Below, piece by piece: positions 1 to 45,852 of a DNA stretch of 64,000 bases. The position numbers were made by a program, and so were the translations under genes. The notes beneath the pieces are model-generated. The model was not told where the DNA came from. It ran no database searches and worked only from the letters and a program-made list of their open reading frames with translations. This DNA is from a virus, in the IMG/VR virus record IMGVR_UViG_3300043773_000401, positions 1 through 64,000 of that record; one strand, 5' to 3'. Positions within the stretch are counted from its first letter, which is position 1. Each line of letters starts with the position of its first letter.

Positions 1-1064
1 TGCATACCACAAGTAGTAACTTCTAAATAACTTGTATTATCTGGAGTAAAGTCTACCCTAGTATTAACAGTTATGTTTACATTAGAAAAGGTATATGTGT
101 AATAACCAGATACTAGTGTCCAACTAGCTGCAGTTAATGTTTGACCTGTAAGTCTAACTATAGAAGCTCCACCACCACCAGAATATTGTGGGATATTCAA
201 TGTACTACCTATTAACGTGGCAGCACCACTTGTTCCTGTAGTAGTAAGTGTTAATGCATCTTGTTTGCTATTAAAAGTGTTCCAATCTGTAGAAGATAAA
301 TATCCATCTTGAACAGCTCCTGATTGTGGCATACTTAAGTTAGGTGCAGTACCTCCTGTAGAAGCCATAGGTGCTGATGCTGTTACTGCAGTTACTGTTC
401 CACCACTAGATGGACTAGAGTTAGTTATTGTAAAGTTAGGGTAAGTACCAGTTATACCAATACCAGTTCCTGCTGTTAAAGCAACAGTCTGATCAGGAAG
501 AGTATTTTGTAATGTAAAACTAGGATATGTTCCTGTTACTGCTAGTCCAGAACCTGTAGTTCCTAAACTTACAACTTGATCTGGTGCTGTATTAGTAACA
601 GTAAATGTGCCAGATGTAGTTATAGGTCCTGGAGGAGATACACTTATACCAGTTCCTGCATCTACATCTATAGATGTTACAGTTCCTCCACTTGAAGGAG
701 ATGTATTACTAATGGTAAAATTAGGATATGTACCTGCAACTCCAATACCTGTACCAGCAGTTAGTGCTACTGTTTGATCTGGTAAAGTATTAGTAACTAT
801 ATTACCAGCTAAACTAATTCCTATTCCTGCAGTTAATCCGTCTTGCTTACTATTAAAGGTAGTCCAGTCAACTGCCGATAAATACCCGGAAGTTGCTCCT
901 GTTGCTTGAGTAATAGATATATCTGGTGTTGCTCCACCTGTAGAAGATAAAGGAGTAGTGGCAGTAACTGATGTAACTCCCCCACCACCTGATCCAGGTA
1001 GTAGTATCCCCCCGGTCAAGTAAGCTTTTTTTATTTTACCAGCTGAGTCAATTATTAAGACCAT
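1..1064 (-). CDS. Tail fibre/adhesin-like G/T/S-rich repeat protein (partial, runs off left edge; not in ORF track)
   Basis: Manual translation from ATG at 1064: MVLIIDSAGKIKKAYLTGG...; duplicated NTLPDQTVALTAGTGIGxxGTYPNFTI and GYLSxxDWxTFNSKQD repeats; no stop before position 1. Confidence 0.75.
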   Translation of the reverse strand, partial: MVLIIDSAGKIKKAYLTGGILLPGSGGGGVTSVTATTPLSSTGGATPDISITQATGATSGYLSAVDWTTFNSKQDGLTAGIGISLAGNIVTNTLPDQTVALTAGTGIGVAGTYPNFTISNTSPSSGGTVTSIDVDAGTGISVSPPGPITTSGTFTVTNTAPDQVVSLGTTGSGLAVTGTYPSFTLQNTLPDQTVALTAGTGIGITGTYPNFTITNSSPSSGGTVTAVTASAPMASTGGTAPNLSMPQSGAVQDGYLSSTDWNTFNSKQDALTLTTTGTSGAATLIGSTLNIPQYSGGGGASIVRLTGQTLTAASWTLVSGYYTYTFSNVNITVNTRVDFTPDNTSYLEVTTCGM

Positions 1065-1369
1065 GTTCCTACTATACTAATATCACAGGGTGCTGAAACA
1101 ACAACATTATAAAAGTCATTAGGTTTAAGTACTCTTAGGGTAGTATCATATAACTTATCCCCGGCAGCTAAACTTTCCCTAAGAATAACAGTACTAACAC
1201 TATTCCTTATAATAGATACTTCTACTGTACATGCTAATGCTGGATTAACAGGAACAAATGAAGCATTAGCTATATTAGCATCTTCATAGTTAACATCACC
1301 TACTAGAGATGGTGTACTAAATGCATAGTTAGTTGCTACCTGTTGATATTTAGAAAATGTACCTGCCAT
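1055..1369 (-). CDS. Hypothetical protein, probably virion-associated (beta-rich)
   Basis: 104 aa ORF translationally coupled to neighbours in the - strand operon. Confidence 0.65.
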   Translation of the reverse strand: MAGTFSKYQQVATNYAFSTPSLVGDVNYEDANIANASFVPVNPALACTVEVSIIRNSVSTVILRESLAAGDKLYDTTLRVLKPNDFYNVVVSAPCDISIVGTWS

Positions 1370-1665
1370 TAGTCTACATCTTTTTCTATGGTAGCATCCT
1401 TAGTAAGTAATACCATCAATTCATAATAAGGTATCCTTACTATAACTTCAGTACCAGAGTTTAATACTATAACTGAGAAATCTTCAGGGACTAATTTCTT
1501 AGGACCTGTATATGTATTAGACAACACTATATTTCTCATATCTGGTATGTCTAGGTCACATGCTTCTCTAACCATGAATATACTATTCATATTTAAGTTG
1601 ATTTTACATTGTACTAGGTATGAGTTATCATACTCTTCAAAAAATATAAGTGTGTCAGTAATCAT
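1369..1665 (-). CDS. Hypothetical protein
   Basis: 98 aa ORF, stop/start overlap with the next gene. Confidence 0.65.
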   Translation of the reverse strand: MITDTLIFFEEYDNSYLVQCKINLNMNSIFMVREACDLDIPDMRNIVLSNTYTGPKKLVPEDFSVIVLNSGTEVIVRIPYYELMVLLTKDATIEKDVD

Positions 1666-1666
1666 A

Positions 1667-2551
1667 CTATCCTTCTATTAAAGTTATCTCAAATTTAGGA
1701 AATCTTCCTTTCTTTTCATTAGTCCCTATAGAAAATTTTATCCAGGCACCACCTAAAGACGGAGCATTAAATCCTTTACTAACTTCCCACTGACTATCTT
1801 TACTATCTTTAAATGTAGACAACTGGATATGAGCTTGATCCTTAACTGTGTAGTTCATGTCAGCATTAAGAGATTTCTTAGTCCTATATACTACCCACTT
1901 CTGGTGAATATGACCATACACATATATATCAGCATCTATCATAGTCTGAGTCCGGCTAGTATTGATTACCCCCATAGTCACCGGAGCATTTCCCCCTAGT
2001 CCATGATTCCTATACATAAGTAAAGAAGCAGCCCCTTTAGTAATTTCTCCAGCACTAGTAAGCTGTTCAAACTGAAACTTAATAAACCCATCATATTGCT
2101 GATGTTGGATATTACTTCCGGTCTCTCTGTTTAACTCCTTGATAAGTTGCTTAGTCAGGTTACGTTCATGTCTCTGATTAACAGACTGCTCATGATTACC
2201 TTCACCTAGTATAGCAATGTTCTTAGCATAAGGCTTAAGAAAATCTACAGAGTCTTCTATAACAAGATCAAAGTAATTACCAAACTGAAACTCAGGCTTA
2301 ATATCTCCTTTAGTAGATCTTTTATCATACTTACCTCCCATCACATCAAACCAATCTCCATTATCTATAATAATAGCATTTCTTTCTACTGCCTGATCTA
2401 GTATTTCTTTAAGCTTTCGGGTATTACACTTCTTATTATCCTTGTGTACGTCAGAAGTAAGAAGCACCCACTGTGACCATTCTTTAGTATTCTTAAAAGG
2501 AACCCTAATAATTACACCATCATTCTTGGTCTCCCATGTCGGTTTTGCCAT
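1667..2551 (-). CDS. Calcineurin-like metallophosphoesterase
   Basis: Motifs SDVH, NGDWFD, GNHE, HG and GHIH in canonical order. Confidence 0.85.
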   Translation of the reverse strand: MAKPTWETKNDGVIIRVPFKNTKEWSQWVLLTSDVHKDNKKCNTRKLKEILDQAVERNAIIIDNGDWFDVMGGKYDKRSTKGDIKPEFQFGNYFDLVIEDSVDFLKPYAKNIAILGEGNHEQSVNQRHERNLTKQLIKELNRETGSNIQHQQYDGFIKFQFEQLTSAGEITKGAASLLMYRNHGLGGNAPVTMGVINTSRTQTMIDADIYVYGHIHQKWVVYRTKKSLNADMNYTVKDQAHIQLSTFKDSKDSQWEVSKGFNAPSLGGAWIKFSIGTNEKKGRFPKFEITLIEG

Positions 2552-2569
2552 AAATAATAATATCTACTG

Positions 2570-2601
2570 CTAATATACAACATCCCTAGATAACTACCAA
2601 A
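2570..2601 (-). promoter_or_regulatory. Bacteroidota sigmaA-like promoter for the - strand operon
   Basis: TTTG-N20-TATATTAG on the - strand (consensus TTTG-N19-21-TAnnTTTG, one mismatch), 18 nt upstream of ATG 2551. Confidence 0.5.
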
Positions 2602-2935
2602 TCTGAATGTTAATAAAGTGTTAGTAAGGGGTATAGGAATTATATATGTAGTAAAAAGAGAAGGGGTGGTAATTAACAACCCCCAGCAAAAAAATTCAGA
2701 GGGGGCTACCCCCATGGTTGTGGAGAGAGAGCAAGGGGTGGGTGGGGGTGTTGTAGAAAAAAAGCATGCTTGGCAAAGAAGATGTGTGTGATGTGAGAAG
2801 AAGAAGTGTGGTGTGCAGCAGGCAGGCAAGCAGAAGAAGTAGAAAGAGAGGAGCAAGCAGAGCAAGGGAAGATGTATATAGAATACTATACTATATATTA
2901 TATATACTATACCCGTTTGATTACTTAATACACAT

Positions 2936-3190
2936 ATGAAGAAACCAGAATTGCTTTTAATTCCTGTTGTATCATTTATAATAGGGATAGGATTAGGTGC
3001 AGGTGCTATGTTAGGTAGGTCATCTGCAGCACAAGTAACTACCAATGATGGTGTATGGACATTCATTGGAGATACTAATAACGGGGCTGAATGGAGAGTT
3101 ACTGATGATCAAGATAGTACATCAGTAGTTCATATATACCATAACGGCAAACTAGCAACATGGGTAGGGGAACCATGTAATTGCTATTAA
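2936..3190 (+). CDS. Small membrane-anchored/secreted early protein
   Basis: N-terminal hydrophobic segment; first + strand gene; motif variant ACCCGTTTG at 2911-2919. Confidence 0.6.
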   Translation: MKKPELLLIPVVSFIIGIGLGAGAMLGRSSAAQVTTNDGVWTFIGDTNNGAEWRVTDDQDSTSVVHIYHNGKLATWVGEPCNCY

Positions 3191-3252
3191 CTTATCTTCC
3201 CTTATATGTAATTCACATCAATAGTGCTAGGCAGCAATCCTGGTCGCAACTT

Positions 3253-3283
3253 ACAGAGCTAAACAATAATGCTCTGTTTTTTT
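3253..3283 (+). terminator. Intrinsic terminator
   Basis: ACAGAGC...GCTCTGT followed by a T-tract. Confidence 0.65.
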
Positions 3284-3292
3284 CTTTATAGT

Positions 3293-3303
3293 AAACCCTT
3301 TTG
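3293..3303 (+). promoter_or_regulatory. Early motif AAACCCTTTTG (copy 1)
   Basis: Exact motif ~20 nt upstream of ATG 3323. Confidence 0.7.
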
Positions 3304-3322
3304 TGTAAGTAATCTAATATAT

Positions 3323-3526
3323 ATGAACACACTAACAAAGAAACTAATGGTACTATTTGGTACTTTCTGTATTCCATTCTTGATAGTATGGATATCAGTT
3401 CTAATGACAGCATTTACTGTTAACTTCCGGGAAGTATTTGAGAGTCCTATCTTTTGGGGAATAACTGTAATATACTGGATAATCTGGTTCTGTTTTATAG
3501 GTTATTTAGTAGAAGATATTGAGTAA
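3323..3526 (+). CDS. Small two-TM membrane protein
   Basis: Two hydrophobic helices; start moved to 3323 (MNTLTKK), downstream of the motif. Confidence 0.7.
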   Translation: MNTLTKKLMVLFGTFCIPFLIVWISVLMTAFTVNFREVFESPIFWGITVIYWIIWFCFIGYLVEDIE

Positions 3527-3543
3527 GTGGTGTATTTAGGTTT

Positions 3544-3575
3544 GAGAGCATAGGTATATCCTGTGCTCTTTTTTT
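3544..3575 (+). terminator. Intrinsic terminator
   Basis: AGAGCATAGG/CCTGTGCTCT stem followed by a T-tract. Confidence 0.7.
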
Positions 3576-3582
3576 GTGAGTT

Positions 3583-3593
3583 AAACCCTTTTG
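3583..3593 (+). promoter_or_regulatory. Early motif AAACCCTTTTG (copy 2)
   Basis: Exact motif ~19 nt upstream of ATG 3612. Confidence 0.7.
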
Positions 3594-3611
3594 AATAACT
3601 AATACATCATT

Positions 3612-3902
3612 ATGCAGAAAATTAACATCAATGGTATTGAGCAGGAAGTACTCATGTTCACACCACAAATTAATGGGCAATTGGCCATTGTCCACCTATC
3701 CGTGCTACATAAGCTAACGGATCTATTACCAAAGGCTTCATTGGATACTATTAAATTCAGAATCACAAGTACTATACAGACTTGTACCTCAATAGATGGT
3801 ATCATAGAATTCATGAAGCAAGAAATAGCCTTCCAAGAAACTGTCAACTGCATTAGGCAGGTTAATGCTGAAGAGATTAACCCACAGCCTATTAACTGGT
3901 AG
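3612..3902 (+). CDS. Hypothetical early protein
   Basis: 96 aa ORF within a motif/terminator cassette. Confidence 0.65.
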   Translation: MQKININGIEQEVLMFTPQINGQLAIVHLSVLHKLTDLLPKASLDTIKFRITSTIQTCTSIDGIIEFMKQEIAFQETVNCIRQVNAEEINPQPINW

Positions 3903-3932
3903 AACATGTAGGGCTAACTATTAATTAACAAT

Positions 3933-3964
3933 GGGGGATGGGATAAATCCTGTCCCCTTTTTTT
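3933..3964 (+). terminator. Intrinsic terminator
   Basis: GGGGATGGGA/TCCTGTCCCC stem followed by a T-tract. Confidence 0.7.
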
Positions 3965-3975
3965 GTTTGTCTATG

Positions 3976-3986
3976 AAACCCTTTTG
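3976..3986 (+). promoter_or_regulatory. Early motif AAACCCTTTTG (copy 3)
   Basis: Exact motif ~19 nt upstream of ATG 4005. Confidence 0.7.
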
Positions 3987-4004
3987 CACACTCAAATAAA
4001 TCAT

Positions 4005-4211
4005 ATGGACACTACCACACTATTGTCAGTCATAGAACTGATAGAAAATCAGATTAGTAATCTTGAAGAAAGATTAATATCTAGGGATAAGACAGACCCT
4101 TTTATACTAGCAGAAAGAGAAGCAATCCATCAGTTAAGGTTATTAATGGACCATCTTCAATGTGAGATAGAAGGAAGACTCAACGGGTATGAAATGTATC
4201 TATCAGAGTAA
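4005..4211 (+). CDS. Small helical early protein
   Basis: Start moved to 4005 (MDTTT), downstream of the motif. Confidence 0.65.
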   Translation: MDTTTLLSVIELIENQISNLEERLISRDKTDPFILAEREAIHQLRLLMDHLQCEIEGRLNGYEMYLSE

Positions 4212-4216
4212 AAAAC

Positions 4217-4242
4217 AGAGATAGGTGTAACAGCCTATCTCT
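4217..4242 (+). terminator. Hairpin/terminator-like stem
   Basis: AGAGATAGG-tgtaacag-CCTATCTCT directly after the gene; weak T-tract. Confidence 0.5.
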
Positions 4243-4253
4243 TAACCCTTTTG
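4243..4253 (+). promoter_or_regulatory. Early motif TAACCCTTTTG (copy 4)
   Basis: 10/11 match ~20 nt upstream of ATG 4273. Confidence 0.65.
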
Positions 4254-4272
4254 TAAATTTAATACACACTAT

Positions 4273-4545
4273 ATGGATTTAATGTATGACATGCGTAGTT
4301 TTCACTACAATAAGTTAGGAAGACAATTCCTTACTACCAATAAGAATGTTATGAAAGTAGAAGCAGTTACTAATATCTCCGGGACAGTGTTTAGTCCTAC
4401 TACTAATATAGAGATAGGTAGAGAACAGTTCTATATCTTTAATACAGATACTTATGGTAGAAGAAGATTCAGGTTACAGTGGGAAACAGATACACTAATG
4501 TACTTTGCATCAGAAGACGGTTTCTCCTGTGTAGTCTATAAGTAG
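4273..4545 (+). CDS. Hypothetical early protein
   Basis: 90 aa ORF within a cassette. Confidence 0.6.
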   Translation: MDLMYDMRSFHYNKLGRQFLTTNKNVMKVEAVTNISGTVFSPTTNIEIGREQFYIFNTDTYGRRRFRLQWETDTLMYFASEDGFSCVVYK

Positions 4546-4562
4546 GGCTTCGGTCCTACTTT
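4541..4562 (+). terminator. Intrinsic terminator
   Basis: AGTAGGGC-TTCG-GTCCTACT-TT. Confidence 0.65.
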
Positions 4563-4575
4563 ATGGGCCTGTGTT

Positions 4576-4586
4576 AAACCCTTTTG
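4576..4586 (+). promoter_or_regulatory. Early motif AAACCCTTTTG (copy 5)
   Basis: Exact motif; followed by a structured ORF-less segment. Confidence 0.7.
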
Positions 4587-4589
4587 TAT

Positions 4590-4685
4590 TAGTAAGAGAG
4601 GTGTGACTTCGGTTATAAAGTTCAGAAGATAAGCATATTGCGGTATCTACTGTCCACATCTCTACCCTAATGGGTCTTTTTTTTT
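4590..4685 (+). ncRNA. Candidate small structured RNA (~95 nt)
   Basis: Lies between an early motif and hairpin ACCC-TAAT-GGGT + T9; closing stem 4597-4605/4655-4663, UUCG hairpin, second stem 4623-4652; no ORF. Confidence 0.5.
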
Positions 4686-4736
4686 GGTACTAATCACACA
4701 CCTGTGCACAGAGTAATTCTCTCTCCCTGTATACTT

Positions 4737-4747
4737 AAACCCTTTTG
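4737..4747 (+). promoter_or_regulatory. Early motif AAACCCTTTTG (copy 6)
   Basis: Exact motif followed by N6-GATAGTTTAATT; upstream of ATG 4789. Confidence 0.7.
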
Positions 4748-4788
4748 GTAACAGATAGTTTAATTTCATTTATTTAATTCATTTAATT

Positions 4789-5214
4789 ATGCCTCAAATT
4801 CTAAAAGCCTTTTATCTTAAGGCACAAAACAGCAAAACAGCAAAGAATGCTGACGGAACTCCAAAGACCTACTTTCACTATGTTGTAGACGGAACACCTG
4901 AACAGTTAGACCTCTATCGTGAGAGATGCTACAAGGGTATTTCTGAATGGGCACATGACCCTGAATATACAGGTGGCAAATTGTCCAATTTAGCAGGTAA
5001 TCCTATTTATCAAGATGCAGTAGCAAGCATTGATAATGTAGTAGATTTGATTATACCTGATGATGAAACCAAGCAGCCTTATATAGACTGGGATCATCAG
5101 AAGCGTATTACCTCATTAGCCAAGCAAGGTCTGATACAGATTACTACACCTACCAAGGTATCAAGGTCTGTCAGTACCAAGGTTGAAGAGACAGAAGAAC
5201 TTGACGGGCTATAA
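4789..5214 (+). CDS. Early protein with acidic LDGL tail, paralogue of 5538..5918
   Basis: YVVDGTPEQLDLYR vs YQVEGTAEELLAFR; both end in LDGL. Confidence 0.75.
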   Translation: MPQILKAFYLKAQNSKTAKNADGTPKTYFHYVVDGTPEQLDLYRERCYKGISEWAHDPEYTGGKLSNLAGNPIYQDAVASIDNVVDLIIPDDETKQPYIDWDHQKRITSLAKQGLIQITTPTKVSRSVSTKVEETEELDGL

Positions 5215-5222
5215 CAGCCAAA

Positions 5223-5257
5223 GAATGCCCTGCCTAACGGTAGGGTATTTCTTTTTT
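5223..5257 (+). terminator. Intrinsic terminator
   Basis: AATGCCCTGCC/GGTAGGGTATT stem followed by a T-tract. Confidence 0.7.
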
Positions 5258-5264
5258 ACAGCAG

Positions 5265-5361
5265 TGTCTCAACCCTAGAGAGACAAGGGCTCTACCGTAG
5301 AATGCGGGATACAGGGCTATAAAGGCTGTAAAATTGTCTTAGCCTTAGAGCTACAAGGCTT
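5265..5361. repeat. Pair of imperfect 27-bp direct repeats with internal dyad symmetry
   Basis: 5265-5291 TGTCTCAACCCTAGAGAGACAAGGGCT vs 5335-5361 TGTCTTAGCCTTAGAGCTACAAGGCTT (20/27 identical). Confidence 0.5.
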
Positions 5362-5483
5362 TGCTCAGAGAGATCCTTACCATCTTACAGTTATTGCTCT
5401 GAGAAAATTATAGATTTATAGTGTGTGCTCTCTCTGTTCTTCTCTCTCTTTCTCTTCCTCTCCCTCTCTCTCTTCTCCTACCC

Positions 5484-5494
5484 AAACCCTTTTG
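5484..5494 (+). promoter_or_regulatory. Early motif AAACCCTTTTG (copy 7)
   Basis: Exact motif followed by N6-GATAGTTTAATT; upstream of ATG 5538. Confidence 0.7.
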
Positions 5495-5537
5495 TAGTTG
5501 GATAGTTTAATTATAAAAGTATAAAAATCAAAGAGTT

Positions 5538-5918
5538 ATGAAAGGTTTATTTATTAATGATTACATGAAAAACAATGTTGTATACAATGTGTATCAAGTA
5601 GAAGGAACAGCTGAAGAGTTATTAGCATTTAGAAATACAGAGAGTGCTAAATCTACAGACCCAGAAACAGGCAAAGACTTGTGGTTTACTAGACAGTTTA
5701 ACGGCAATACTGTAGAACTTGCTATTAGTAAGAACAATAGAGTCTATGCTGACAATGGTGAACTACGTAGATTTGCTGATATGTGTGGTAGAATGGGTAC
5801 TGTAGGTGAACAAATGCTGATGAAAAAGATCAGTGAACTGTCTACTAAAAGACCTGTTAGAGCTATACAGAATGTAGTAGTTAATGATACTGCAGATGAT
5901 GTATTAGATGGGTTATAA
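5538..5918 (+). CDS. Early protein with acidic LDGL tail, paralogue of 4789..5214
   Basis: Shared N-terminal motif and C-terminal LDGL. Confidence 0.75.
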   Translation: MKGLFINDYMKNNVVYNVYQVEGTAEELLAFRNTESAKSTDPETGKDLWFTRQFNGNTVELAISKNNRVYADNGELRRFADMCGRMGTVGEQMLMKKISELSTKRPVRAIQNVVVNDTADDVLDGL

Positions 5919-6029
5919 TTTCATGTAAGTAACTGATAATGAGATAGTGATACACAGACTTATCCTATCTCATTGTCTTTACTAACTCACAACTTTTTTA
6001 ACTATTCAAAATAACTATACTATAATACT

Positions 6030-6269
6030 ATGGCTAAAGAATACTGGATACAGAGAGATGGTACTAAGATAGATATAGACTCTATGTCTCTTAGTCATCT
6101 TAGAAATACATTAAAGATGCTTGTTAGAAATGCTAACTATAAAAAACCTAAAGAAAGTCTTAAGTCTAAGATAGAACTTAAAGGTGATATGGCTTTAGAG
6201 TTTAATAACTCTTTCCCGGAAGATGAATATGATAACCTATTAGATGATGATGTATATGGATACTATTAA
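6030..6269 (+). CDS. Small phage hypothetical protein
   Basis: WIQRDG..IDIDSMS..HLRNTLKML-type small phage protein; acidic tail. Confidence 0.65.
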   Translation: MAKEYWIQRDGTKIDIDSMSLSHLRNTLKMLVRNANYKKPKESLKSKIELKGDMALEFNNSFPEDEYDNLLDDDVYGYY

Positions 6270-6465
6270 ATATGAGAGTGAAGATGAATACTATCAGAGA
6301 GTATGGACTATTAGACAAGAGAGACTTGAAGAATCCGGGTTGCCTGAATGGGTACTTGAGATGTATCAAGGTAGATATTCTGTAGAAATAGTTAAAGATC
6401 CTTTTGATACAGAACATCCTACACACTTTATAGGGGAACAAGATTTAGATATCTTACCCTTTTGA
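6256..6465 (+). CDS. Small acidic protein with SSB-like C-terminus (DLDILPF)
   Basis: Overlaps the previous stop; start at 6244 or 6256. Confidence 0.6.
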   Translation: MDTIKYESEDEYYQRVWTIRQERLEESGLPEWVLEMYQGRYSVEIVKDPFDTEHPTHFIGEQDLDILPF

Positions 6466-6484
6466 TGCTGATAATATGGCTAAG

Positions 6485-6521
6485 TAACCCTGACTCATTG
6501 TAGTTAGGGTTATTTTTTTTT
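6485..6521 (+). terminator. Intrinsic terminator
   Basis: TAACCCTGACT/AGTTAGGGTTA stem followed by T9. Confidence 0.75.
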
Positions 6522-6691
6522 GTGAAAACCAATTACATCTTATGAATATTGGTTACAGATTTATAAATTGATGATTTTTAATTATCCTATATCTGCAGGC
6601 ACACTCGTTCTTTTTATAATCCGAATTAACATTCAAGTCCTGCAGGTATTAGGGTATCTTAAGTAGTATAAACCAAATAAATATATAAATT

Positions 6692-7846
6692 ATGATTAGA
6701 GAAGTAATTTCACAGGGAAGTAAAACTAATGTTGAAGAATTGTTATCCCTACCATTTAAAGCAGGTAAGATTAAGTACTATCAAAGTGGTACAGCAGGTT
6801 ATAGAACAGTATCCTTTTATATGGATGATGATAAACTATGTATATCTGATAGGCATACACAAGTTTATATGGGTACTAAGAGTCTATATACTAAAAGTAA
6901 AGATTCTTTAGGATTTACCTTTGACTTTAAGACTAAGAAAGTAAAGAACTGGTTTGGTAAGTATTTAATGATAGATAACAATATGGTTAAAACTATTAGT
7001 AAGCATTACCGGGATATTGAGTGGGCATGTGATAATATGTCCTTATCCTTAATATCTTTTAAGCCAGCATTGTTTGCTAAAGTTCTTACCGGGAAGATTA
7101 CAAATCCCAGAGATCTTATAAAGCACTATCTTAAGTATCATGTTAAAGTTAATGTATCTCCAGAGTTACTATATCAGGCATATGCACAAAAGAATTTACA
7201 GTATAATGAAGTGATTGATATACTTCATAAACTTAAGTATCTTAAGAATCTTGACCATGCTCTTATAGATTACAGAAACTCTAACCTCAGAGATTTTGTT
7301 ACTGCCATCTTTGGTGCTGAAAAGTCTTCTATAAGTTATGATGCTCTTCATCTTGCTAAAATGCTTGACTATAAGGTAGATCATACTTGGTCTCAAAATA
7401 GATTAAAGGAAGAGCATGATAAATGGACTAAGGAAGTAATGCAGATAGAACTTGAGTCTTTAAAAGATGAAGTACTTGATTACCCGAAAGAAGTTTTATT
7501 ACAGGATGCTAACTTTAAGTTTAGTATAGTTAATAGTAAGAAAGACTTATTTCAGATAGGTAAGCATGAACATCATTGTATCTATACTAACTATTGGAAT
7601 AGAATCAAGGACAAAGAATATTTCTGTCTTCATGGTTATTATAATGATAAGAACTATACCATAGGCATACAAAAGGCATGGAATAGTGATGATTATGTAA
7701 TAGACCAGATTCAAAGCAAATATAATGGTGGTGCTCCTGATGAGTTGAAAGAATTTATGTATGAGACTATGAAACATCATGTCATGCAGGATTATTTCAA
7801 AAAGATTGCTAAGAAGCAACCTATTATGGTACCAAAGTTATGGTAA
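6692..7846 (+). CDS. PcfJ-like domain protein
   Basis: C-terminal LKEEHD...DLFQIG..EHHCIYT.Y...TI.I...IDQIQSKYN pattern typical of PcfJ. Confidence 0.7.
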   Translation: MIREVISQGSKTNVEELLSLPFKAGKIKYYQSGTAGYRTVSFYMDDDKLCISDRHTQVYMGTKSLYTKSKDSLGFTFDFKTKKVKNWFGKYLMIDNNMVKTISKHYRDIEWACDNMSLSLISFKPALFAKVLTGKITNPRDLIKHYLKYHVKVNVSPELLYQAYAQKNLQYNEVIDILHKLKYLKNLDHALIDYRNSNLRDFVTAIFGAEKSSISYDALHLAKMLDYKVDHTWSQNRLKEEHDKWTKEVMQIELESLKDEVLDYPKEVLLQDANFKFSIVNSKKDLFQIGKHEHHCIYTNYWNRIKDKEYFCLHGYYNDKNYTIGIQKAWNSDDYVIDQIQSKYNGGAPDELKEFMYETMKHHVMQDYFKKIAKKQPIMVPKLW

Positions 7847-9578: not shown

Positions 9579-10031
9579 ATGTCAAAAAGTGTAGTAGTTT
9601 TAGGAGAAGTAGGTAAGTCGCCTATTAATGTATCAGAGTCTAACTCAGAATTTGGGTATATCTTGGTACAACAGAAGAGAACATGGGTAGATAATACTGG
9701 ATGGGTAAGATCCAGAAATGTTACAGCACAAATACCGGGTGCAGTATCTGATTTAGAAGCTTTAGGTTATGAAAGTGGTATGGAAATTTCAGGAACTATT
9801 GTAGTTGTGGATTCCTTGACACCATTTAATACCCGTGAGCCACAGCGTGATCATAAACTTGCTGGTAAAACAGGTATTGTATGCTGTTTAGATGGTCAAC
9901 CTATTTATAGGAAGAATATCTATAAGCAAGACCCAAATGCTTTAGATCAGAAGATTCAGCACAATAACAATGAAGATATCCGTGCTGGTATTGTGAAGGC
10001 TAAGGCAGAAGATGAGAGTTTTTCTTTGTAG
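9579..10031 (+). CDS. Hypothetical protein, possible ssDNA-binding (beta-rich, acidic-aromatic tail)
   Basis: Ends EDESFSL; start moved to MSKSVV. Confidence 0.6.
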   Translation: MSKSVVVLGEVGKSPINVSESNSEFGYILVQQKRTWVDNTGWVRSRNVTAQIPGAVSDLEALGYESGMEISGTIVVVDSLTPFNTREPQRDHKLAGKTGIVCCLDGQPIYRKNIYKQDPNALDQKIQHNNNEDIRAGIVKAKAEDESFSL

Positions 10032-10054
10032 TTTTTCATGGTTTAAAGATGATG

Positions 10055-10080
10055 AAGGGAGTGTAACAGCTCCCTTTATT
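10055..10080 (+). terminator. Intrinsic terminator
   Basis: AAGGGAG-tgtaacag-CTCCCTT. Confidence 0.6.
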
Positions 10081-10105
10081 ATTTTAATTTATTAAATTTA
10101 TTTTT

Positions 10106-10510
10106 ATGTATAAAATTAAAACTGTAGATCCTGTTATATCTGATAACTATGTTTTCAGTAAAACACAGAATGAAATGTACAAGAAAGTCCTATGTGGACT
10201 TAACGGTATAGATGAGGGCACACTGAAAAGTATGACTCAAGAAGATAAAAGAGCCATTAAGAAAAGGCACAGTAAAGCACAGTATGTGCTGAATGTATGG
10301 AAGCAAGAGTTATCTGCCGAGATTGTTAATAATCTGGTGAAAACTTTGTTTCCAAAGAGCAGATTTTTTGCTGATTGTTTTGGTACTTACACAGATCCTT
10401 CTTACTTTAACACTTTGCAATTTAAGGACTTAGGTATATCCAAGGTTCAGATTGTGAATAAGTTAATTAAAGAAGGTTTATTACCAGAATACTTTTATCA
10501 GATAAAATGA
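10106..10510 (+). CDS. Hypothetical protein
   Basis: 134 aa ORF. Confidence 0.7.
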   Translation: MYKIKTVDPVISDNYVFSKTQNEMYKKVLCGLNGIDEGTLKSMTQEDKRAIKKRHSKAQYVLNVWKQELSAEIVNNLVKTLFPKSRFFADCFGTYTDPSYFNTLQFKDLGISKVQIVNKLIKEGLLPEYFYQIK

Positions 10511-13319: not shown

Positions 13320-13780
13320 AACTAGAACTTATTCCTAACTATGTAGATGCTGCATTTGAACAAGAAGTTCTTAAGCTGGTACCTAAGATAGATAAGAAGA
13401 ATTCTAATGGAGTTAATCAGACATTAAGGTGGGGTTCTAATAATGGACCCTACCGAGTGTCTAACATATCTACAGATATACCAGAGATATTCTTACCTTT
13501 TAAGGATAAGTTTGAGTTTAACATGGTAGGTATCAATGAGTATCATCCTGGTCAATTAATAGACTGGCATATAGATCATGTATCAGGTGGAGAACAGATA
13601 AGATTAATTAGTTTACTATCTGAAGCAGATCTAAAGTTTAAAAGGGATAATCATATAGTATCTTATACATTACCTAGATATTCATATTGTATGTTTGAAG
13701 GAGAACTAAGATGGGGATATAAGCATAGTCTTTATGCTCCTGAATATAGAGTGTCTGTAGTATTTAGAAATATAATTTAA
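13316..13780 (+). CDS. AlkB-like 2OG-Fe(II) oxygenase
   Basis: NEY..GQ.I.WHID (HxD), KHS (distal His), RVSVVFR. Confidence 0.8.
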   Translation: MKLELIPNYVDAAFEQEVLKLVPKIDKKNSNGVNQTLRWGSNNGPYRVSNISTDIPEIFLPFKDKFEFNMVGINEYHPGQLIDWHIDHVSGGEQIRLISLLSEADLKFKRDNHIVSYTLPRYSYCMFEGELRWGYKHSLYAPEYRVSVVFRNII

Positions 13781-32102: not shown

Positions 32103-33166
32103 TAAACACAGAAGTTAATGCTATTAGACTAGAAGAAGAATTTTATGGTAGGTATCACTACTTTAGTTATTCAGCAATTAACAGACTGTTATTCTCACCT
32201 AAGTTATTTTACAATCACTATATTCTTGGTGAAAGAGAAGATAAATTAGAATCTCATTTGATAGAGGGCAAGGTTATCCATTGCCTTCTATTAGATAGAG
32301 ATAAGTTTGAAGAGCAGTTTGCATTGTCACCGGATAAACTTCCAACTGATAGTGTGAAGACTGTAATAGATAGAGTATATAACTATCATATGCAGCAAGT
32401 TAAAGAAGGCTTCTCAGTAGAGACTGCCACATTAGATTATTATGCAGATATAATTTTACAGACTCTAGTAGAAGTAAACTTGCATCAAGCATTAACAGAT
32501 GATAAGAAAGCAGATAAAGAAGGGGTCCAAAAGACCGGAGACCAAAAGAGATTAGAGAAAGTTATAACAGATCAAACAGCTAGTTACTTTGAGTTCTTAA
32601 AGATAAAAGAAAAGAGAGACATAATAGATCAAGCAACGTATAATAAATGTATGGATATTGTTTCTATACTGGAGCAAGATCCTAAAGTAAGAATGTTACT
32701 GAATCTTGATGATGATGGGAGAACTACATTTAATGAGTATCCATTATCCTTTGAATCTAAAGCTCACGGTTTTGGGTTTAAAGGTATAGTAGATAATTTC
32801 TCTATAGACTTTGCTCACCGCAAGATTTATATTAATGACCTAAAGACATCTGCCAAGTCAATTGATAAGTTTCCTGAAAGTGTAGAATATTACAAGTACA
32901 ATCTCCAAGCTATTATGTATGTCAGATTAGTATCATGGTATATAGAGAATCATTTTGGTATTGATGTAGATGGTACATGGACTATAGACTTACATTTTGT
33001 AGTAATAGATCCGTACAAGCAGGTCTATGCTTACAAAGTATCTGATGATACTATGGTTAGATGGTTAGATGAGTTCTCTGATGTACTTAAGAAGGTTCAG
33101 TGGCATTATGACAACAGAAGATATGACTTACCCTATAGTTTAGCTGTTGATAACTTAACACTGTAA
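32099..33166 (+). CDS. PD-(D/E)XK exonuclease (RecE/Cas4-like)
   Basis: SYSAI, G.VIH, NE, KGIVD...INDLKT, Y.LQA.MY. Confidence 0.8.
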   Translation: MINTEVNAIRLEEEFYGRYHYFSYSAINRLLFSPKLFYNHYILGEREDKLESHLIEGKVIHCLLLDRDKFEEQFALSPDKLPTDSVKTVIDRVYNYHMQQVKEGFSVETATLDYYADIILQTLVEVNLHQALTDDKKADKEGVQKTGDQKRLEKVITDQTASYFEFLKIKEKRDIIDQATYNKCMDIVSILEQDPKVRMLLNLDDDGRTTFNEYPLSFESKAHGFGFKGIVDNFSIDFAHRKIYINDLKTSAKSIDKFPESVEYYKYNLQAIMYVRLVSWYIENHFGIDVDGTWTIDLHFVVIDPYKQVYAYKVSDDTMVRWLDEFSDVLKKVQWHYDNRRYDLPYSLAVDNLTL

Positions 33167-38057: not shown

Positions 38058-38079
38058 TAATTGTTCGTGTGTTTGGATT

Positions 38080-38115
38080 AAAGGGTAGGTTTTGATAGCC
38101 TACCCTTTTTTCTTT
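38080..38115. terminator. Bidirectional terminator between the convergent blocks
   Basis: AAAGGGTAGG/CCTACCCTTT stem flanked by A and T tracts. Confidence 0.8.
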
Positions 38116-41100
38116 TTATCTATTTCTTATAGATGTAATAGTTTTAAGATATTCTTCTGGAGATAGTGTACTACCTGTAAATCCATAAGTAGATAATATA
38201 TCTTTTAGAACTTTAGGTGAACCTTCTTTCTGCCATTCATATGGTCCAACATCTCTTTTATAGAATGCTCTTTCATCACCTGTAGCTAATCTATAAAGAT
38301 CTGTAATTGCATCTGACCATTTTTCTACTGTAGCACCTATTGCAATTGATTCTAACTTTGCCATGTTTAATAATTCTCTTCTTCCTAGTATAGGATTAAA
38401 GAGTTCATTCTCACTTCTTACCTGGATCATCATAAGTAGTGCATGGTTTTCTAACCATCCTTTTAAGTTAAACTCATATCTGTCATCTTCAGGAGCAAAT
38501 AAAAACGGCATAGGTCCACTCTTTTCTCTAAGCTTTCTGTATCTGTCTTCATCATCTGGGTCATAACCAAATAAGAATGGTAATAAAGCAATCATACCAT
38601 ATAGAGTAAACATCTCTACAAACATTCTAAAGGTAAGTAGTTTTTCTCTAGTATCCATCATGTGTCTATACTGACCTTGAGTTCTTATTAGTCGGTATAT
38701 ATTTCTCATACCTTCTAAGTACCATCCCATATCTGTATCAGTAGCTGCTACATTATATCTAGGCATTGGATCCCATACATTACCTCTAAACTGAAAACGT
38801 GACATTAATATTCTTGTGATGAATCTCTTTAAGAAGGCAACAAATCTGTATAGTAGATATCTTTGAGCATCTGGGTTTTCAAATGCAGAGTTACCACCAG
38901 CTACTTTATTCTGTACATCATGCATTCTATTAATGAAGGTTTTATATTTCGTACCACCAATACCCCATTCTTTATCTATACCATCTCTTAATTTGATTTG
39001 GTTTTTATCATCTAGTACCCAAGCCTCCATGTATGGTATCATTTTCTTTACCCCATTCTCAGTAATCTCTACCATTTGACCATACATCATAGCACCATAT
39101 ACTGATAGAGCAGACTGAAGTTCTAACCACTTTCTTGTATTAAGAAGAACACCTTGATAGTTCATTACATCTTTTAGTAATGTTCTAGTTATTCTCTCAT
39201 CCATTTTACTTTCATATCTACCCTGAGATGGATCAAATATTTCTACCTTCTGAAGTTCTAAACTATGTGGACCACGGTTATAAATATTCATGGATAGCTG
39301 TAACATGGTCTTAGAAGCCCATGCATTACCCTTAGCTAGATCTTTTGTGTTATAGTATTTACCACCAACACCTTCTAAGAATGCTTGGTATTGAGCTCCA
39401 AAGTTATTCTTTAATGCAGAAGGTACGTTAAGTGCAAAGAATCCCATACTAGCTCTTCTGAATAAGAAGTCAGAGAACTTATTTAATCCCTGCCATTCTG
39501 CAGTAGGACCAGCTTGTAATACTCCTTCAAATTCTCTTTCAAATAAGTTATCTATTACTTTAGCTCTCAGGTTCTCTCCTTTCTTGTTTAAGAATACCAT
39601 ACGTCCTAGATTTTTAAAAGCACTTTTGTAGAACCTGGACATATCTTTATTTTTCTTAGGAGCATTAGTGTTAGGATCTTTAACTGCTTCTTGTATACCT
39701 TTAGCAAAAGGAAGCATCTTAAGTTTAACCTTATGTTTTTCTCCAGAGAGCATGTATCTCATCACACTATTAATAACATTTAGAGATACTATTTCATGAT
39801 CAATATAGTTCTTACCATCTATAGGTACACGGGTATCATTTTCATCAAACATATCCATGTTAGTCATTACTACCTCATCTTCAAAGTTCTGACCATTTAA
39901 GTAGCCATCTTTGGTAGCCGTGAATATATTTTTGATAGACTCCCATATATTCTTAACTGTCTTTCTAGTACCATTTAATTGGAATGTTTCTAGTGATCCC
40001 ATTCTATATCTAGGTACATCCAAGTATAGTTTTGCATTTAAGCTTAATCCTTCCTGGTACTTTAGATAGAAGTCAGTAAGTTTCTGTAAAGCTTCAAAGT
40101 AATTTCTTTTTGAAGGATCTTCTTTAAGCTCATAATACTTCTCATTGATATATCTTAGATGTTCATTAGGATCAGATGGATCAAATTCTTCAGGATAAGC
40201 TTGTCTATAAGCTATCATGTCTTCTTTATTCTTAGGAAGCCATTGACCTCTGTTATCTATAGTTTTATAGACAGTTCTTTCAGTATTAGCATATGCTTCA
40301 TTCTCTACTCTTTTCTTAAACTTAAGACTAGGAACTCTATAGATAGTTTGTTCTACACCATTCTCATCTAAGATAACAGTAGATTCTTTATATTTATTAT
40401 CAGTAGGTTCAGTATAACTATAAGCATTTCTTCTTACTACTTGTTTTTTATATCCTTTAGATTTCTTATCATACTTTCTAGCAACTCTATGAGTCTTATT
40501 AAACCATGCTCTCAGATTTTCATTACCTGGTAATTGTATAAATGATAATTGTTTACCTTCACTTTCATATCTAGGAGTAATGATAGCTTTTTCAAAAGCA
40601 TCTAACAATCCTTTTTCATAAAGCTTATCTACATCTGTAATAGTTTCACCTAGATCATTAGTAAAGATTTCATATAAAATAGTTCTTAACTGGAATGGTT
40701 GACTAGGATCATCTTGTATGTTCTTTAACTGAGCAGCAAATTGATTTAGATAATAGTTACTTGGTTTAATAGTTTCTAAATCTTCAAGTTCTTTAAATAA
40801 AGATTCTAAAGCTAGTTTTTCTTCATCAGTTAAACCATTTTTAGCTTGACCAGAGTCTTTAAAGTCTTGCATTTTTTGTTCATACATCTCTAGTCTTTCT
40901 ATCTCTTCATCTGTTAGAAGAGCAGATGACATTTGATTTAGATCATAATAATCTCTAGCTTCTGCTTTAGTAAGACCATTACTTGTCAGCTTCTCATCTT
41001 TAAGTTTTTCTAACTGATCTTCAATTTGATTTAACTCTTCTAGTGCTTCAGGACTAAGAGAATCTAGATTAAGCTGTCTGTTATCATCTCTATTACCAGA

Positions 41101-44100: not shown

Positions 44101-45852
44101 AGATACACCAGCAAAAAACTTTTCATCTATAGATTTTAATTTTTTATATTCATATCCTAATTCATTACCAGCAAATCTTACCATGTCTAGTACTACAGAT
44201 CCAAAGTCAGAAAAGAATTCTGCAGCACCTGGAGTATTTAAGTAATCAACATTTGTATTATTATGATATTGTGGAAGAGCCGGATTAAAATCAGTAGTTA
44301 CAATAGCTTCTACTGCTTCTATTTCTTTTTCAGCTTTAAAAGATGTATCATAATCTTTTTCAGTACTTACTTCTAATTTTCCTGTTTCTGCATTTTTTAC
44401 ACCCTTTTCTGATATTATGAGTTTAATTACTTTTCTTACTTCTTCTTCTGCTGATTCTAAACCTTTTTCTATTCTCCTTCTTTTATTTTCCTCTATAGTT
44501 TTTTCTACATCAGCATAAAGTTTAGATCTTTCTTCTGGTGTAAGTACTTTATTAGGATCTACTTTTGGTAAACCTGTGATATTACTAAAAACAGCTTTTG
44601 CATCTTTTTCTGCTTCTCCACTTGCATACTTCTTTAAGTAATTATTTAATGCTTTTATATCATTTTTAACTGTATTTTTGAAGCCTTCTCTTTGATTATT
44701 AAAAGGATATTGTTCTGATGTGGATGCTACAGATGGTTTAATATTTACAACTATATCATAGGGAATATTTTCCCAATCTCTAAAACTAAAAGATGTTTCA
44801 AACTGATATATTCCTGAAGATAATATTTTATGACTAGGGTATTCTTTTTTTTCAGTACTCATGTAAAGATCAGCAGTACCCCATGAAAATTCTAATTTAG
44901 AAAATAATGGAGGTAGTACTTCTTCAGTTATATTTTTACCTAGTGGAAGAACTTTAGTATTTGTTTTATCTCCTTTAACCCAAGTAAAGTTAACATTAAG
45001 ATCACCTATTAAAGGTTTATCTAATATATCAAATCTTTCATATGGTGTTGATGAATACTCTCCTGGAAAATCAATAGATCTTTTTACTCCTTCTGCTGTA
45101 GTATATGATTCTGGTATTTTTACTTCAACAAAACTACCATTAGGTTCTGTTGTTTGTTCTGTTGTAATTAAAAAATCATCATTATAAAGTTGTATAGCTG
45201 TAGCATTGATAGATGTTTTAATACCATCTCTTATTGTAACTACTCTAACATATTCTGAACCAAGTAAAAATTGTACTTTTGCTAATCCAAATCCACCACT
45301 TCTTTCTGAAACATCAAGACCTTCTTTATTAGTTCCACCTATAGATAAAAATGCATTTTTAACAATGTCAGGTGTCATACCTATACCATCATCTTGAATA
45401 GATATTGTCCTGTTATTATAATCTACTGTAATATTGAGATTCCCAGTTGTTGTATTTCCAGTAATATTCATTCTTGCCTTAATTGCATCAAAACTATTTT
45501 GTAATAATTCTTTTATAGCAACTTGGGCTAATGGTTTATTATACATAGTTGGACCTAAAAGCATTAATAACTGTTGTTTATTAACTCCTATAGATCCTTT
45601 TTCAGATTGCATTAACTCTCCAGTAAGACCACCTAATTTTGATATATCTTGTATTTGAGGTTTTGCAAAAGCTATAACCTCTGGCATTTTTGTAAGTACC
45701 TTAGCTACAACATCTTCTGGGTTTCTAAAAGTACCATACTCTAGATAATCTCTTTTTGCTTCAAATTCTGCAGTAATAACACCAGCATCCTTAAGTGCTT
45801 GAACTATAGCTATATAGTCTGGGTTAGATGTATTTATACAATCTCTTCTCAT
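38116..45852 (-). CDS. Giant virion-ejected polyvalent protein with GHKL ATPase and two zincin motifs
   Basis: KELLQNSFDA/QDDGIGM/GGFGLA; HEINH; HEFSH; long helical C-terminus; start probably 45852 (TAATG overlap) rather than 45870. Confidence 0.8.
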   Translation of the reverse strand: MRRDCINTSNPDYIAIVQALKDAGVITAEFEAKRDYLEYGTFRNPEDVVAKVLTKMPEVIAFAKPQIQDISKLGGLTGELMQSEKGSIGVNKQQLLMLLGPTMYNKPLAQVAIKELLQNSFDAIKARMNITGNTTTGNLNITVDYNNRTISIQDDGIGMTPDIVKNAFLSIGGTNKEGLDVSERSGGFGLAKVQFLLGSEYVRVVTIRDGIKTSINATAIQLYNDDFLITTEQTTEPNGSFVEVKIPESYTTAEGVKRSIDFPGEYSSTPYERFDILDKPLIGDLNVNFTWVKGDKTNTKVLPLGKNITEEVLPPLFSKLEFSWGTADLYMSTEKKEYPSHKILSSGIYQFETSFSFRDWENIPYDIVVNIKPSVASTSEQYPFNNQREGFKNTVKNDIKALNNYLKKYASGEAEKDAKAVFSNITGLPKVDPNKVLTPEERSKLYADVEKTIEENKRRRIEKGLESAEEEVRKVIKLIISEKGVKNAETGKLEVSTEKDYDTSFKAEKEIEAVEAIVTTDFNPALPQYHNNTNVDYLNTPGAAEFFSDFGSVVLDMVRFAGNELGYEYKKLKSIDEKFFAGVSIDKQYAGIHIRKIINAIFVNPLAFDVKSLEEAVGVALHVTIHEINHTTVSGEGANFTTALGILYGKIYGTGKYALYEGLFRSVYKKHFDTFVKLKIEYDKSNTRNLSESFEGDEVKRDTSRDIQRDVDDVSTRQTAEERYRRDQEDNKKDKTGDVILSKLEQANQVVESIEEVALITNPERSNNPDVGETSVKTAEVVDNANATANLTQLAEMLMVNLGVNYELVTAERAKQMLGDKYNGEPAFYYGDTVFFVGERLTMEMVFHEFSHPLVRAIRKGNPQLFENLYDSLEANSPDIIDYVKTEYQELVEGTPAFMEEVIVTALGRMATLKSQNAPIEKGFAKVIKDILAAIKKMLRQLFGKVNVSTLDVDTSLDTLANMLVEGNRFALSQLTAETDTEAMFFKNTEQEVEELTRLVDRRTKNSTAQQAANIVYERTRRHIQELRFNKDYKEIAKLFRDQFGEAQYSIITKNLSKYQNLLEDKLEEIENDVTQAKNRADAVINTLVQIEIMAEKLDNYFNTDFDSVDNKDTLAKIMNYNKIIMSWENMITELKEVMRNAEYTVDGVTKRLSDKNATYDLVIRIGEKVGRIKERVNEIVTETTSETYEEILGPIQEAIDEKYKRLIDLAKSTNQPAWLIKSYEDEYANITLKDANGQIKDKIKKLLGGELNDANFLNSYLEGYMYNQDPTVFGLAKYIKDNYIDALNNAQRYYNEFATEMLPILEKLGFNPNNIRELGNILTFLDDDGFVDEKGVFQKRKVHTFLNANKNWRHDLKEWENKLEEEKLKAKSRGDYSTYRKMEAEFEKWQRKYFYEPFAREIYDLNKLFQDSIGQEAKRLKDEALNNINSLSQKVDDPNDFVEMKTIEDAWDQYNQLFSLTYPDGTDKKGADLKIAERLIEYRTKSRQYYKYVDRPGAFQAAFSSFLEKLTYELNSGKITKEQFDIKKEQWLRANSVVKIKEEFYAEKNRILNAIKILTDKINIPSDVDKEISDLYRRRANIISGNRDDNRQLNLDSLSPEALEELNQIEDQLEKLKDEKLTSNGLTKAEARDYYDLNQMSSALLTDEEIERLEMYEQKMQDFKDSGQAKNGLTDEEKLALESLFKELEDLETIKPSNYYLNQFAAQLKNIQDDPSQPFQLRTILYEIFTNDLGETITDVDKLYEKGLLDAFEKAIITPRYESEGKQLSFIQLPGNENLRAWFNKTHRVARKYDKKSKGYKKQVVRRNAYSYTEPTDNKYKESTVILDENGVEQTIYRVPSLKFKKRVENEAYANTERTVYKTIDNRGQWLPKNKEDMIAYRQAYPEEFDPSDPNEHLRYINEKYYELKEDPSKRNYFEALQKLTDFYLKYQEGLSLNAKLYLDVPRYRMGSLETFQLNGTRKTVKNIWESIKNIFTATKDGYLNGQNFEDEVVMTNMDMFDENDTRVPIDGKNYIDHEIVSLNVINSVMRYMLSGEKHKVKLKMLPFAKGIQEAVKDPNTNAPKKNKDMSRFYKSAFKNLGRMVFLNKKGENLRAKVIDNLFEREFEGVLQAGPTAEWQGLNKFSDFLFRRASMGFFALNVPSALKNNFGAQYQAFLEGVGGKYYNTKDLAKGNAWASKTMLQLSMNIYNRGPHSLELQKVEIFDPSQGRYESKMDERITRTLLKDVMNYQGVLLNTRKWLELQSALSVYGAMMYGQMVEITENGVKKMIPYMEAWVLDDKNQIKLRDGIDKEWGIGGTKYKTFINRMHDVQNKVAGGNSAFENPDAQRYLLYRFVAFLKRFITRILMSRFQFRGNVWDPMPRYNVAATDTDMGWYLEGMRNIYRLIRTQGQYRHMMDTREKLLTFRMFVEMFTLYGMIALLPFLFGYDPDDEDRYRKLREKSGPMPFLFAPEDDRYEFNLKGWLENHALLMMIQVRSENELFNPILGRRELLNMAKLESIAIGATVEKWSDAITDLYRLATGDERAFYKRDVGPYEWQKEGSPKVLKDILSTYGFTGSTLSPEEYLKTITSIRNR

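Follow-up and report, generated by a model that had tools for sequence, protein, structure and literature searches.

Along one arm of a phage genome, a short motif recurs in front of a series of small protein genes, and one of its copies is followed by a stretch that encodes no recognisable protein. This raises the question of what the unit headed by that copy, here called cassette 5, would produce. An initial annotation, made from the letters of the DNA, had proposed that the unit carries a structured small RNA in place of a protein gene. The locus was examined within a window consisting of the first 64 kb of a 114,817-nt IMG/VR virus record (G+C 32%).

The minus strand of the window contains giant ORFs of 2584, 3777 and 2243 aa, located after the replication genes. 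Membership of the Crassvirales was judged by a giant virion-module protein carrying the DFDxD motif of RNA polymerases (RNAPs) and by homology to crAss-like RNAPs. The 3777-aa ORF (45852-57185, minus strand) carries DFDID at residue 2254, and tblastn with its core yielded 78 phage records, the matches listed being crAss-like, at 23-30% identity. The phage is therefore, as judged from these sequence features, a divergent crAss-like phage. Its leftward genes (3-3066) end where the rightward non-structural arm begins, and the motif array is located at this junction. At the genome ends (1-150 versus 114,650-114,817), the first ~150 nt are repeated near the end of the record with a few mismatches. 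Although nominally linear, the assembly is probably circular or terminally redundant, its closure falling within a repetitive tail-fibre-like gene.

The motif AACCCTTTTG is present in exactly seven copies in the whole 114,817-nt genome, all of them on the plus strand between 3294 and 5494. When up to one mismatch was allowed, the window yielded 11 matches against 4.1 ± 2.0 expected (0 of 100 shuffles). Six of the seven copies are followed, 18-43 nt downstream, by the ATG of an ORF of 67-141 aa. Specifically, copies 1-4 lie 18-19 nt upstream of the ATG of ORFs of 67, 96, 68 and 90 aa, while copies 6 and 7 lie 42-43 nt upstream of ORFs of 141 and 126 aa, and a second box, GATAGTTTAATT, is common to these last two cassettes. 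In cassettes 0-4 the ATG is found 16-19 nt past the motif, and cassettes 0, 1, 2 and 4 have a semi-conserved TAAT box 6 nt past it (at 2927, 3310, 3600 and 4260), the corresponding letters in cassette 5 being TAAG (4593-4596). This box and the constant spacing to the ATG suggest that the early mRNAs would have very short leaders or none.

A scan of the array region revealed no sigma70-like sites coinciding with the motif copies, and a role for the TTTG of the motif as a host -33 element was ruled out by the ATG being only 18-19 nt away in copies 1-4. The motif was therefore treated as a phage-specific start signal, and from its position we infer that AAACCCTTTTG is a candidate early promoter of the phage. 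Most motif copies are also closely preceded by a hairpin and a T run; the early region holds 8 terminator-like sites against 1.5 expected, and the terminator hairpins of the other cassettes have 11-14 bp. Together, these elements delimit a row of small units, of which cassette 5, as the initial annotation had recognised, is the one without an ORF.

A number of further elements were observed in and around the array. A variant of the motif, ATACCCGTTTG, occurs in the 2910-3190 region, 16 nt upstream of an ATG at 2936 that opens an 84-aa plus-strand ORF. This ORF overlaps a minus-strand ORF (2512-3066, 184 aa, no family), and because of the overlap they are probably not both genes. A one-mismatch copy, TACCCTTTTG, in the 6455-6520 region overlaps the end of ORF 6244-6465 and is directly followed by an ATG frame of 3 codons and by a terminator (14-bp stem and T9) that is the strongest in the region; it may form a second start/stop pair without cargo, or be due to chance. 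The proteins of cassettes 6 (4789-5214) and 7 (5538-5918) are weakly similar (pairwise E 0.015), sharing V-[DE]-GT-x-E-x-L and both ending in LDGL, and may be diverged paralogues. Directly past the 126-aa ORF of cassette 7 there is a long, near-perfect hairpin (5925-5986; MFE -25.1 kcal/mol, z -5.2), with a T6 run 18 nt further on; by stability it is in the top ten of the 67-nt windows of the genome, and it is probably an internal terminator or a processing site. Motif copy 7 is directly preceded by a pure pyrimidine (CT) tract of ~45 nt, with which an ORF-less gap (5251-5484) ends, and motif copy 6 is preceded by a shorter CT-rich stretch, as well as by a palindrome, CTGTGCACAG, which is unique yet expected by chance.

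The features that delimit cassette 5 are the following.

4540-4564, plus strand: end of the upstream cassette-4 ORF (stop codon TAG at 4543-4545) and a UUCG-loop hairpin, read directly from the sequence.
4576-4586, plus strand: motif copy 5, AAACCCTTTTG, made up of an A at 4576 and AACCCTTTTG at 4577-4586.
4587-4596, plus strand: A/T-rich stretch TATTAGTAAG, read directly and resembling the N6-TAAT box of cassettes 0, 1, 2 and 4 (TAAG here).
4597-4663, plus strand: predicted structured core of 67 nt (MFE -18.7 kcal/mol), closed by a basal helix, P1.
4603-4632, plus strand: GTG micro-ORF of 9 codons (MTSVIKFRR, then stop), from frame translation, with its start 16 nt past the motif.
~4638, plus strand: TTG frame of 10 codons, from frame translation.
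4670, plus strand: ATG frame of 7 codons, from frame translation.
4664-4685, plus strand: mini-hairpin ACCC-UAAU-GGGU (4664-4667/4672-4675), a C and T9 (4677-4685), the putative terminator and RNA 3′ end.
4688-4703, plus strand: two 7-nt complements, TACTAAT (to 4588-4594) and CACACCT (to the 5′ strand of P1, 4599-4605), present only in read-through transcripts.
4737-4747, plus strand: motif copy 6, heading the next cassette with its 141-aa ORF (4789-5214).

Upstream of these boundaries, the cassette-4 hairpin has the arms AAGTAGG/CCTACTT, extended as GTAGGGC-UUCG-GUCCUAC, and is followed by TTTAT only; this terminator is weak and may let transcription run on into cassette 5. Motif copy 5 is part of a 13-nt sequence, TTAAACCCTTTTG, that is identical in copy 6. 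The A/T-rich stretch directly behind it (4587-4596) would be either an unpaired 5′ tail of the predicted RNA or still part of the promoter. There follow ~90 nt without a plus-strand ORF of more than 10 codons, and then the 4-bp hairpin and T9. The ORF-less stretch of ~95 nt that the initial annotation had described held up in that no plus-strand ORF of at least 20 aa was found within 4546-4788. On the minus strand the region is overlapped by two ORFs (32 and 35 aa), both of which are absent from a collection of 15 billion proteins. The hairpin with T9 at the end of the unit is likewise present, although its T run, at 4677-4685, does not quite reach the end coordinate that the annotation had implied. 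No other cassette terminator has a T run as long as this T9. Its hairpin has 4 bp (three of them G-C) and was unlisted by a scan requiring at least 5 pairs, while the 9-bp P1 ends 13 nt before the T run.

Because the missing ORF could in principle be a very short one, we considered a micro-protein gene, in which a peptide of 9-10 residues would be made from the GTG at 4603-4632 (MTSVIKFRR) or from the TTG frame at ~4638. Although this GTG, at 16 nt past the motif, falls within the 16-19-nt range of the ATG codons of cassettes 0-4, the other cassettes all start with ATG and have products of 67-141 aa. The GTG would moreover lie buried within P1, any stretch of 100 nt can be expected to contain such a 9-codon frame by chance alone, and the frame has no comparative support. 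We therefore regard a micro-protein as very unlikely.

The fold of the region was predicted with ViennaRNA from the single sequence. The closing stem that had been drawn by hand at 4597-4605/4655-4663 was reproduced as P1 (AGAGGUGUG/CACAUCUCU), a helix of 9 bp including one G.U pair, with pair probabilities of 0.72-1.0. The CAG-a-AGATA...TATCT-a-CTG stem with its inner GCA/TGC pairing also reappeared, as a bulged distal arm of 3+5+3 bp at 4623-4652 (CAG-a-AGAUA-a-GCA...UGC-gg-UAUCU-a-CUG; pair probabilities 0.65-1.0). The third element of the hand-drawn fold, a GAC-UUCG-GTT hairpin, fared less well, as it shares G4605 with P1 and thus clashes with it, the variant containing GAC-UUCG-GUU reaching -15.4 versus -18.7 kcal/mol for the MFE structure (3.3 kcal/mol worse). 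The MFE structure favours a third arm formed by ACUU/AAGU (4606-4609/4618-4621), but at a worth of only 1.3 kcal/mol this arm is marginal. The predicted core resembles a bent hairpin, interrupted by an asymmetric internal segment of 17 nt, more than it does a firm three-way junction.

Compared with dinucleotide shuffles, the 67-nt core, whose ends were picked by eye to fit the stem, had a z of -3.18 (1 of 200 shuffles), while its reverse strand folded more weakly (z -2.11). This strand asymmetry extends to the G.U pair in P1 and to the T9, which is on the plus strand only; the G.U pair and the T9 both fit a plus-strand RNA. Across the genome, 0.9% of all 67-nt windows had an equal or lower MFE, or 1.5% after GC correction. 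The most stable 67-nt windows of the 64 kb, as found in a sliding-fold survey, were located at 32236-32317, 13396-13492, 38071-38142 and 10021-10112, all on the plus strand. As modelled, the structure of cassette 5 is above chance and not exceptional for this genome. What is unusual about the site is its context, in which an intact motif resembling a promoter and a T9 enclose no ORF, and the fold alone would not single it out.

The strength of the fold further depends on where the transcript would begin. A transcript spanning 4587-4685 had a z of -2.27 and one spanning 4594-4685 a z of -3.10, so that any start at 4587-4596 retains the fold, and with a start at ~4594-4596 the transcript would begin right at the base of P1. 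However, the 16-19-nt spacing between motif and ATG in the coding cassettes is also compatible with transcription beginning at the ATG or just ahead of it, yielding leaderless messages. An equivalent start in cassette 5, at +17 to +20 (~4603-4606), would leave the 5′ strand of P1 untranscribed, and the remaining 80-nt RNA (4606-4685; z -0.94) is not unusually folded. The interpretation as a non-coding RNA therefore hinges on the 5′ end, because a start at ~4603-4606 abolishes P1.

The main rival explanation is that cassette 5 is an empty cassette, in which a promoter and a terminator were left behind after loss of an ORF or recombination between repeat units. Any RNA made would then be a by-product, with the unit serving at most to insulate the adjacent transcription units. 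The first 10 nt past the motif are similar to the corresponding leaders in the coding cassettes, and the GTG discussed above occupies the position at which a start codon would be expected. The core, mini-hairpin and T9 can also be read as one oversized terminator, comparable to the 11-14-bp hairpins elsewhere in the array, and the fold is no outlier in the genome. Moreover, another long ORF-less stretch is present nearby, a gap of 234 nt (5251-5484) between the cassette-6 terminator and motif copy 7; its fold is not unusual (z -0.24) and it has no Rfam match. Because this gap is non-coding and apparently unstructured, non-coding DNA in this region need not be functional. The array itself is built like the T4-type PeSL cassettes, in which recombination deletes, inserts and swaps small genes (PMC2839356). 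However, recombination between two motif copies would delete a whole unit instead of leaving 90 nt of unique sequence, no paralogue of the cassette-5 segment exists elsewhere in the genome, and no frame within it resembles a protein remnant. Furthermore, motif and T9 are both perfect, which one would not expect of a defunct unit in a compact phage genome, except after a recent loss. The intact putative promoter and intact T9 around a unit without cargo argue that its transcription has been maintained, and we consider an empty cassette possible but on the whole unlikely.

The short terminator hairpin raises another explanation, namely that cassette 5 is a cis-acting leader or attenuator. The weak 4-bp terminator would then leak into the 141-aa gene (4789-5214), with the amount of read-through being set by the structure and by its pairings with 4688-4703. 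Two perfect 7-nt complements are indeed found immediately past the T9, one of which would compete with P1, and the terminator of cassette 4 upstream is weak as well. However, these complements cross one another, and chance alone would give ~0.26 matches of this kind (our own estimate), which makes them a weak signal. In the 214-nt read-through context the RNA had a z of only -0.63, and its centroid kept only the P1/P3 fold. Moreover, an exact motif copy of its own precedes the 141-aa gene, 51 nt past the T9, so that a leader would be unneeded, and neither ligand-binding nor leader-peptide logic was found. A leader or attenuator function thus appears improbable.

With regard to known RNA classes, Rfam 15 gave 0 matches at the gathering threshold in the whole window, 0 matches at E <=1 in 2800-6800, and in 4400-4900 only matches with E >=2.3, none of them on 4587-4690. 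This Infernal/Rfam-type search bore out the initial impression that no known ribozyme or riboswitch is involved, and the hammerhead and other known ribozymes as well as riboswitches were rejected for lack of a family match. A tRNA-like RNA was rejected since ARAGORN detected no tRNA or tmRNA in the window. In the case of crAss001, a TROVE protein is encoded among the early genes (PMC8375218). No match to TROVE (PF05731) was found in the 114.8-kb genome, with controls being positive, and a Y RNA was rejected as there was neither a match to the Y RNA model nor a TROVE partner in the phage.

A ToxI-like antitoxin would be recognised by tandem direct repeats of ~34-36 nt upstream of an endoribonuclease toxin gene. 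Since 4587-4690 contains no tandem repeats and the downstream 141-aa protein belongs to no family, this candidate was rejected too. The initial annotation had suggested a decoy, an antitoxin mimic or an anti-defence RNA, a suggestion that gained no backing from the locus, where no tandem repeats, toxin-like or RNA-binding neighbour or TROVE partner was found. Antisense targets were sought at the start regions of 152 phage ORFs, where the complementarity of cassette 5 did not exceed that of shuffled RNAs (-34.6 versus -35.2 ± 2.8 kcal/mol).

The proteins on either side of cassette 5 were examined for a possible partner and for relatives of the locus. The upstream 90-aa protein has a confident all-beta model (pLDDT 93) and matches only uncharacterised phage proteins. 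The model of the downstream 141-aa protein is unusable (pLDDT 41), with matches in the structure atlas below 0.85 and no match to ToxN, AbiQ or any other Pfam or PHROG family, and a toxin-like or RNA-binding partner was thus not found among these neighbours. Both proteins have close relatives at the protein level, with identities of 86-88% (90-aa protein) and 96-100% (141-aa protein), and a more distant pair (39% and 76%) is encoded on one 6.3-kb contig. The neighbourhood is therefore, by these protein comparisons, conserved in a small population of phages.

The DNA of these relatives was sought in viral, metagenome and genome collections, with the two flanking proteins and alignments of each as queries, and none was recovered. 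Exact-pattern scans of viral contigs for the element, and for the motif combined with the GATAGTTTAAT box, yielded no match, while the pattern of motif, N19-20 and ATG gave only single chance matches in viral contigs and no locus with a motif array. Searches of GenBank phages by megablast, blastn and tblastn likewise yielded no DNA of these relatives, and the only locus that was reached via the 90-aa family, from a distant phage, lacked both the motif and the element.

Taken together, we tentatively favour, at somewhat less than even confidence, the explanation that in cassette 5 this divergent crAss-like phage has a self-contained early transcription unit yielding a small non-coding RNA instead of an mRNA. 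A polymerase reading AAACCCTTTTG would start within ~10 nt past the motif (4587-4596). The injected virion RNA polymerase would be the most likely enzyme, given that the motif is no host promoter and occurs only at the head of the rightward non-structural arm. Transcription would be halted at the U9 tract (4677-4685), producing an RNA of ~90-100 nt. During transcription this RNA would fold into the 67-nt bent hairpin, consisting of a 9-bp basal helix, the 17-nt asymmetric segment and an 11-bp bulged distal arm, followed by the small 3′ hairpin and a U tail. Because no phage antisense target, repeat or feature of a known family was found, the RNA would be expected to act by its shape and not by base pairing, namely as a decoy or regulator that binds a protein of the host or the phage early in infection. 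This action through shape, be it as protein ligand or as decoy, is above all a guess.

A non-coding early stretch has a precedent among crAss-like phages. [quoted passage not shown] These early non-coding transcripts, whose function is unknown, are insensitive to rifampicin like the other early genes, all of which are transcribed by the injected RNAP without a common upstream motif (10.1101/2020.03.07.982082). Cassette 5 would likewise be a non-coding stretch in the rightward early module of a crAss-like phage. However, the ORF-free stretch of phi14:2 (2905-4601) measures ~1.7 kb versus the ~95-nt unit described here, and a comparison of cassette 5 with the phi14:2 early region revealed no sequence similarity. 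Moreover, whereas no common motif was found upstream of the phi14:2 early transcripts, cassette 5 is headed by a sharp 11-nt motif, and it is known here from sequence alone.

The array also recalls the PeSL cassettes of T4-type phages, in which repeated units of a promoter and a stem-loop drive the gain, loss and swapping of small genes (PMC2839356). In the same manner, the repeated start signals and terminators described here box small ORFan early genes, which would provide a route to an empty or RNA-only slot. However, PeSL promoters are strong sigma70-like host promoters, whereas the motif of this phage is not sigma70-like and lies too near the ATGs to serve as a -33 element, and PeSLs are regulatory DNA that has not been proposed to constitute RNA genes. 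The relation to PeSLs is therefore one of analogy and not of membership.

The order of elements predicted for cassette 5 is also that of type III toxin-antitoxin systems with their RNA antitoxins (ToxI, and the pseudo-ToxI mimics of phages), which comprise a promoter, a structured RNA, an intrinsic terminator and a protein gene. However, ToxI has tandem repeats and a toxin gene, whereas cassette 5 is without repeats and the downstream 141-aa gene has its own motif copy. With respect to virulent phages more generally, lytic phages commonly yield non-coding RNA candidates, most of which arise by premature termination in 5′UTRs or by processing of 3′UTRs (PMC10914365). The candidates from phiKZ, PAK_P3, LUZ19 and others are ~90-210 nt long, bounded by a start site and a terminator, conserved within their genus and of unknown function (PMC10914365). 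Whereas these Pseudomonas phage RNAs were found by transcript mapping and Northern blotting, cassette 5 is a free-standing unit that was predicted from its sequence.

[quoted passage not shown] Cassette 5 is a plausible and cheaply testable candidate for a phage small RNA, and a short ORF-less unit behind an exact copy of a candidate start signal is a convenient test object for early transcription. The 5′ end of its RNA would locate the start site, while the 3′ end would show whether the polymerase obeys terminators made of a hairpin and a U run. Deletion of cassette 5 would in turn test whether early phage RNAs matter. Should the unit prove to be an empty slot, it would document PeSL-like turnover of cassettes in the Crassvirales. 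A more far-reaching possibility, which we consider a long shot, is that the virion RNAP makes a dedicated structured RNA of ~95 nt among its first products, that this RNA serves as a decoy against a host defence or RNA-processing factor, and that such "RNA cassettes" may recur in other crAss-like phages. If true, this decoy reading would amount to an RNA-based function in immediate-early takeover or anti-defence in the Crassvirales.
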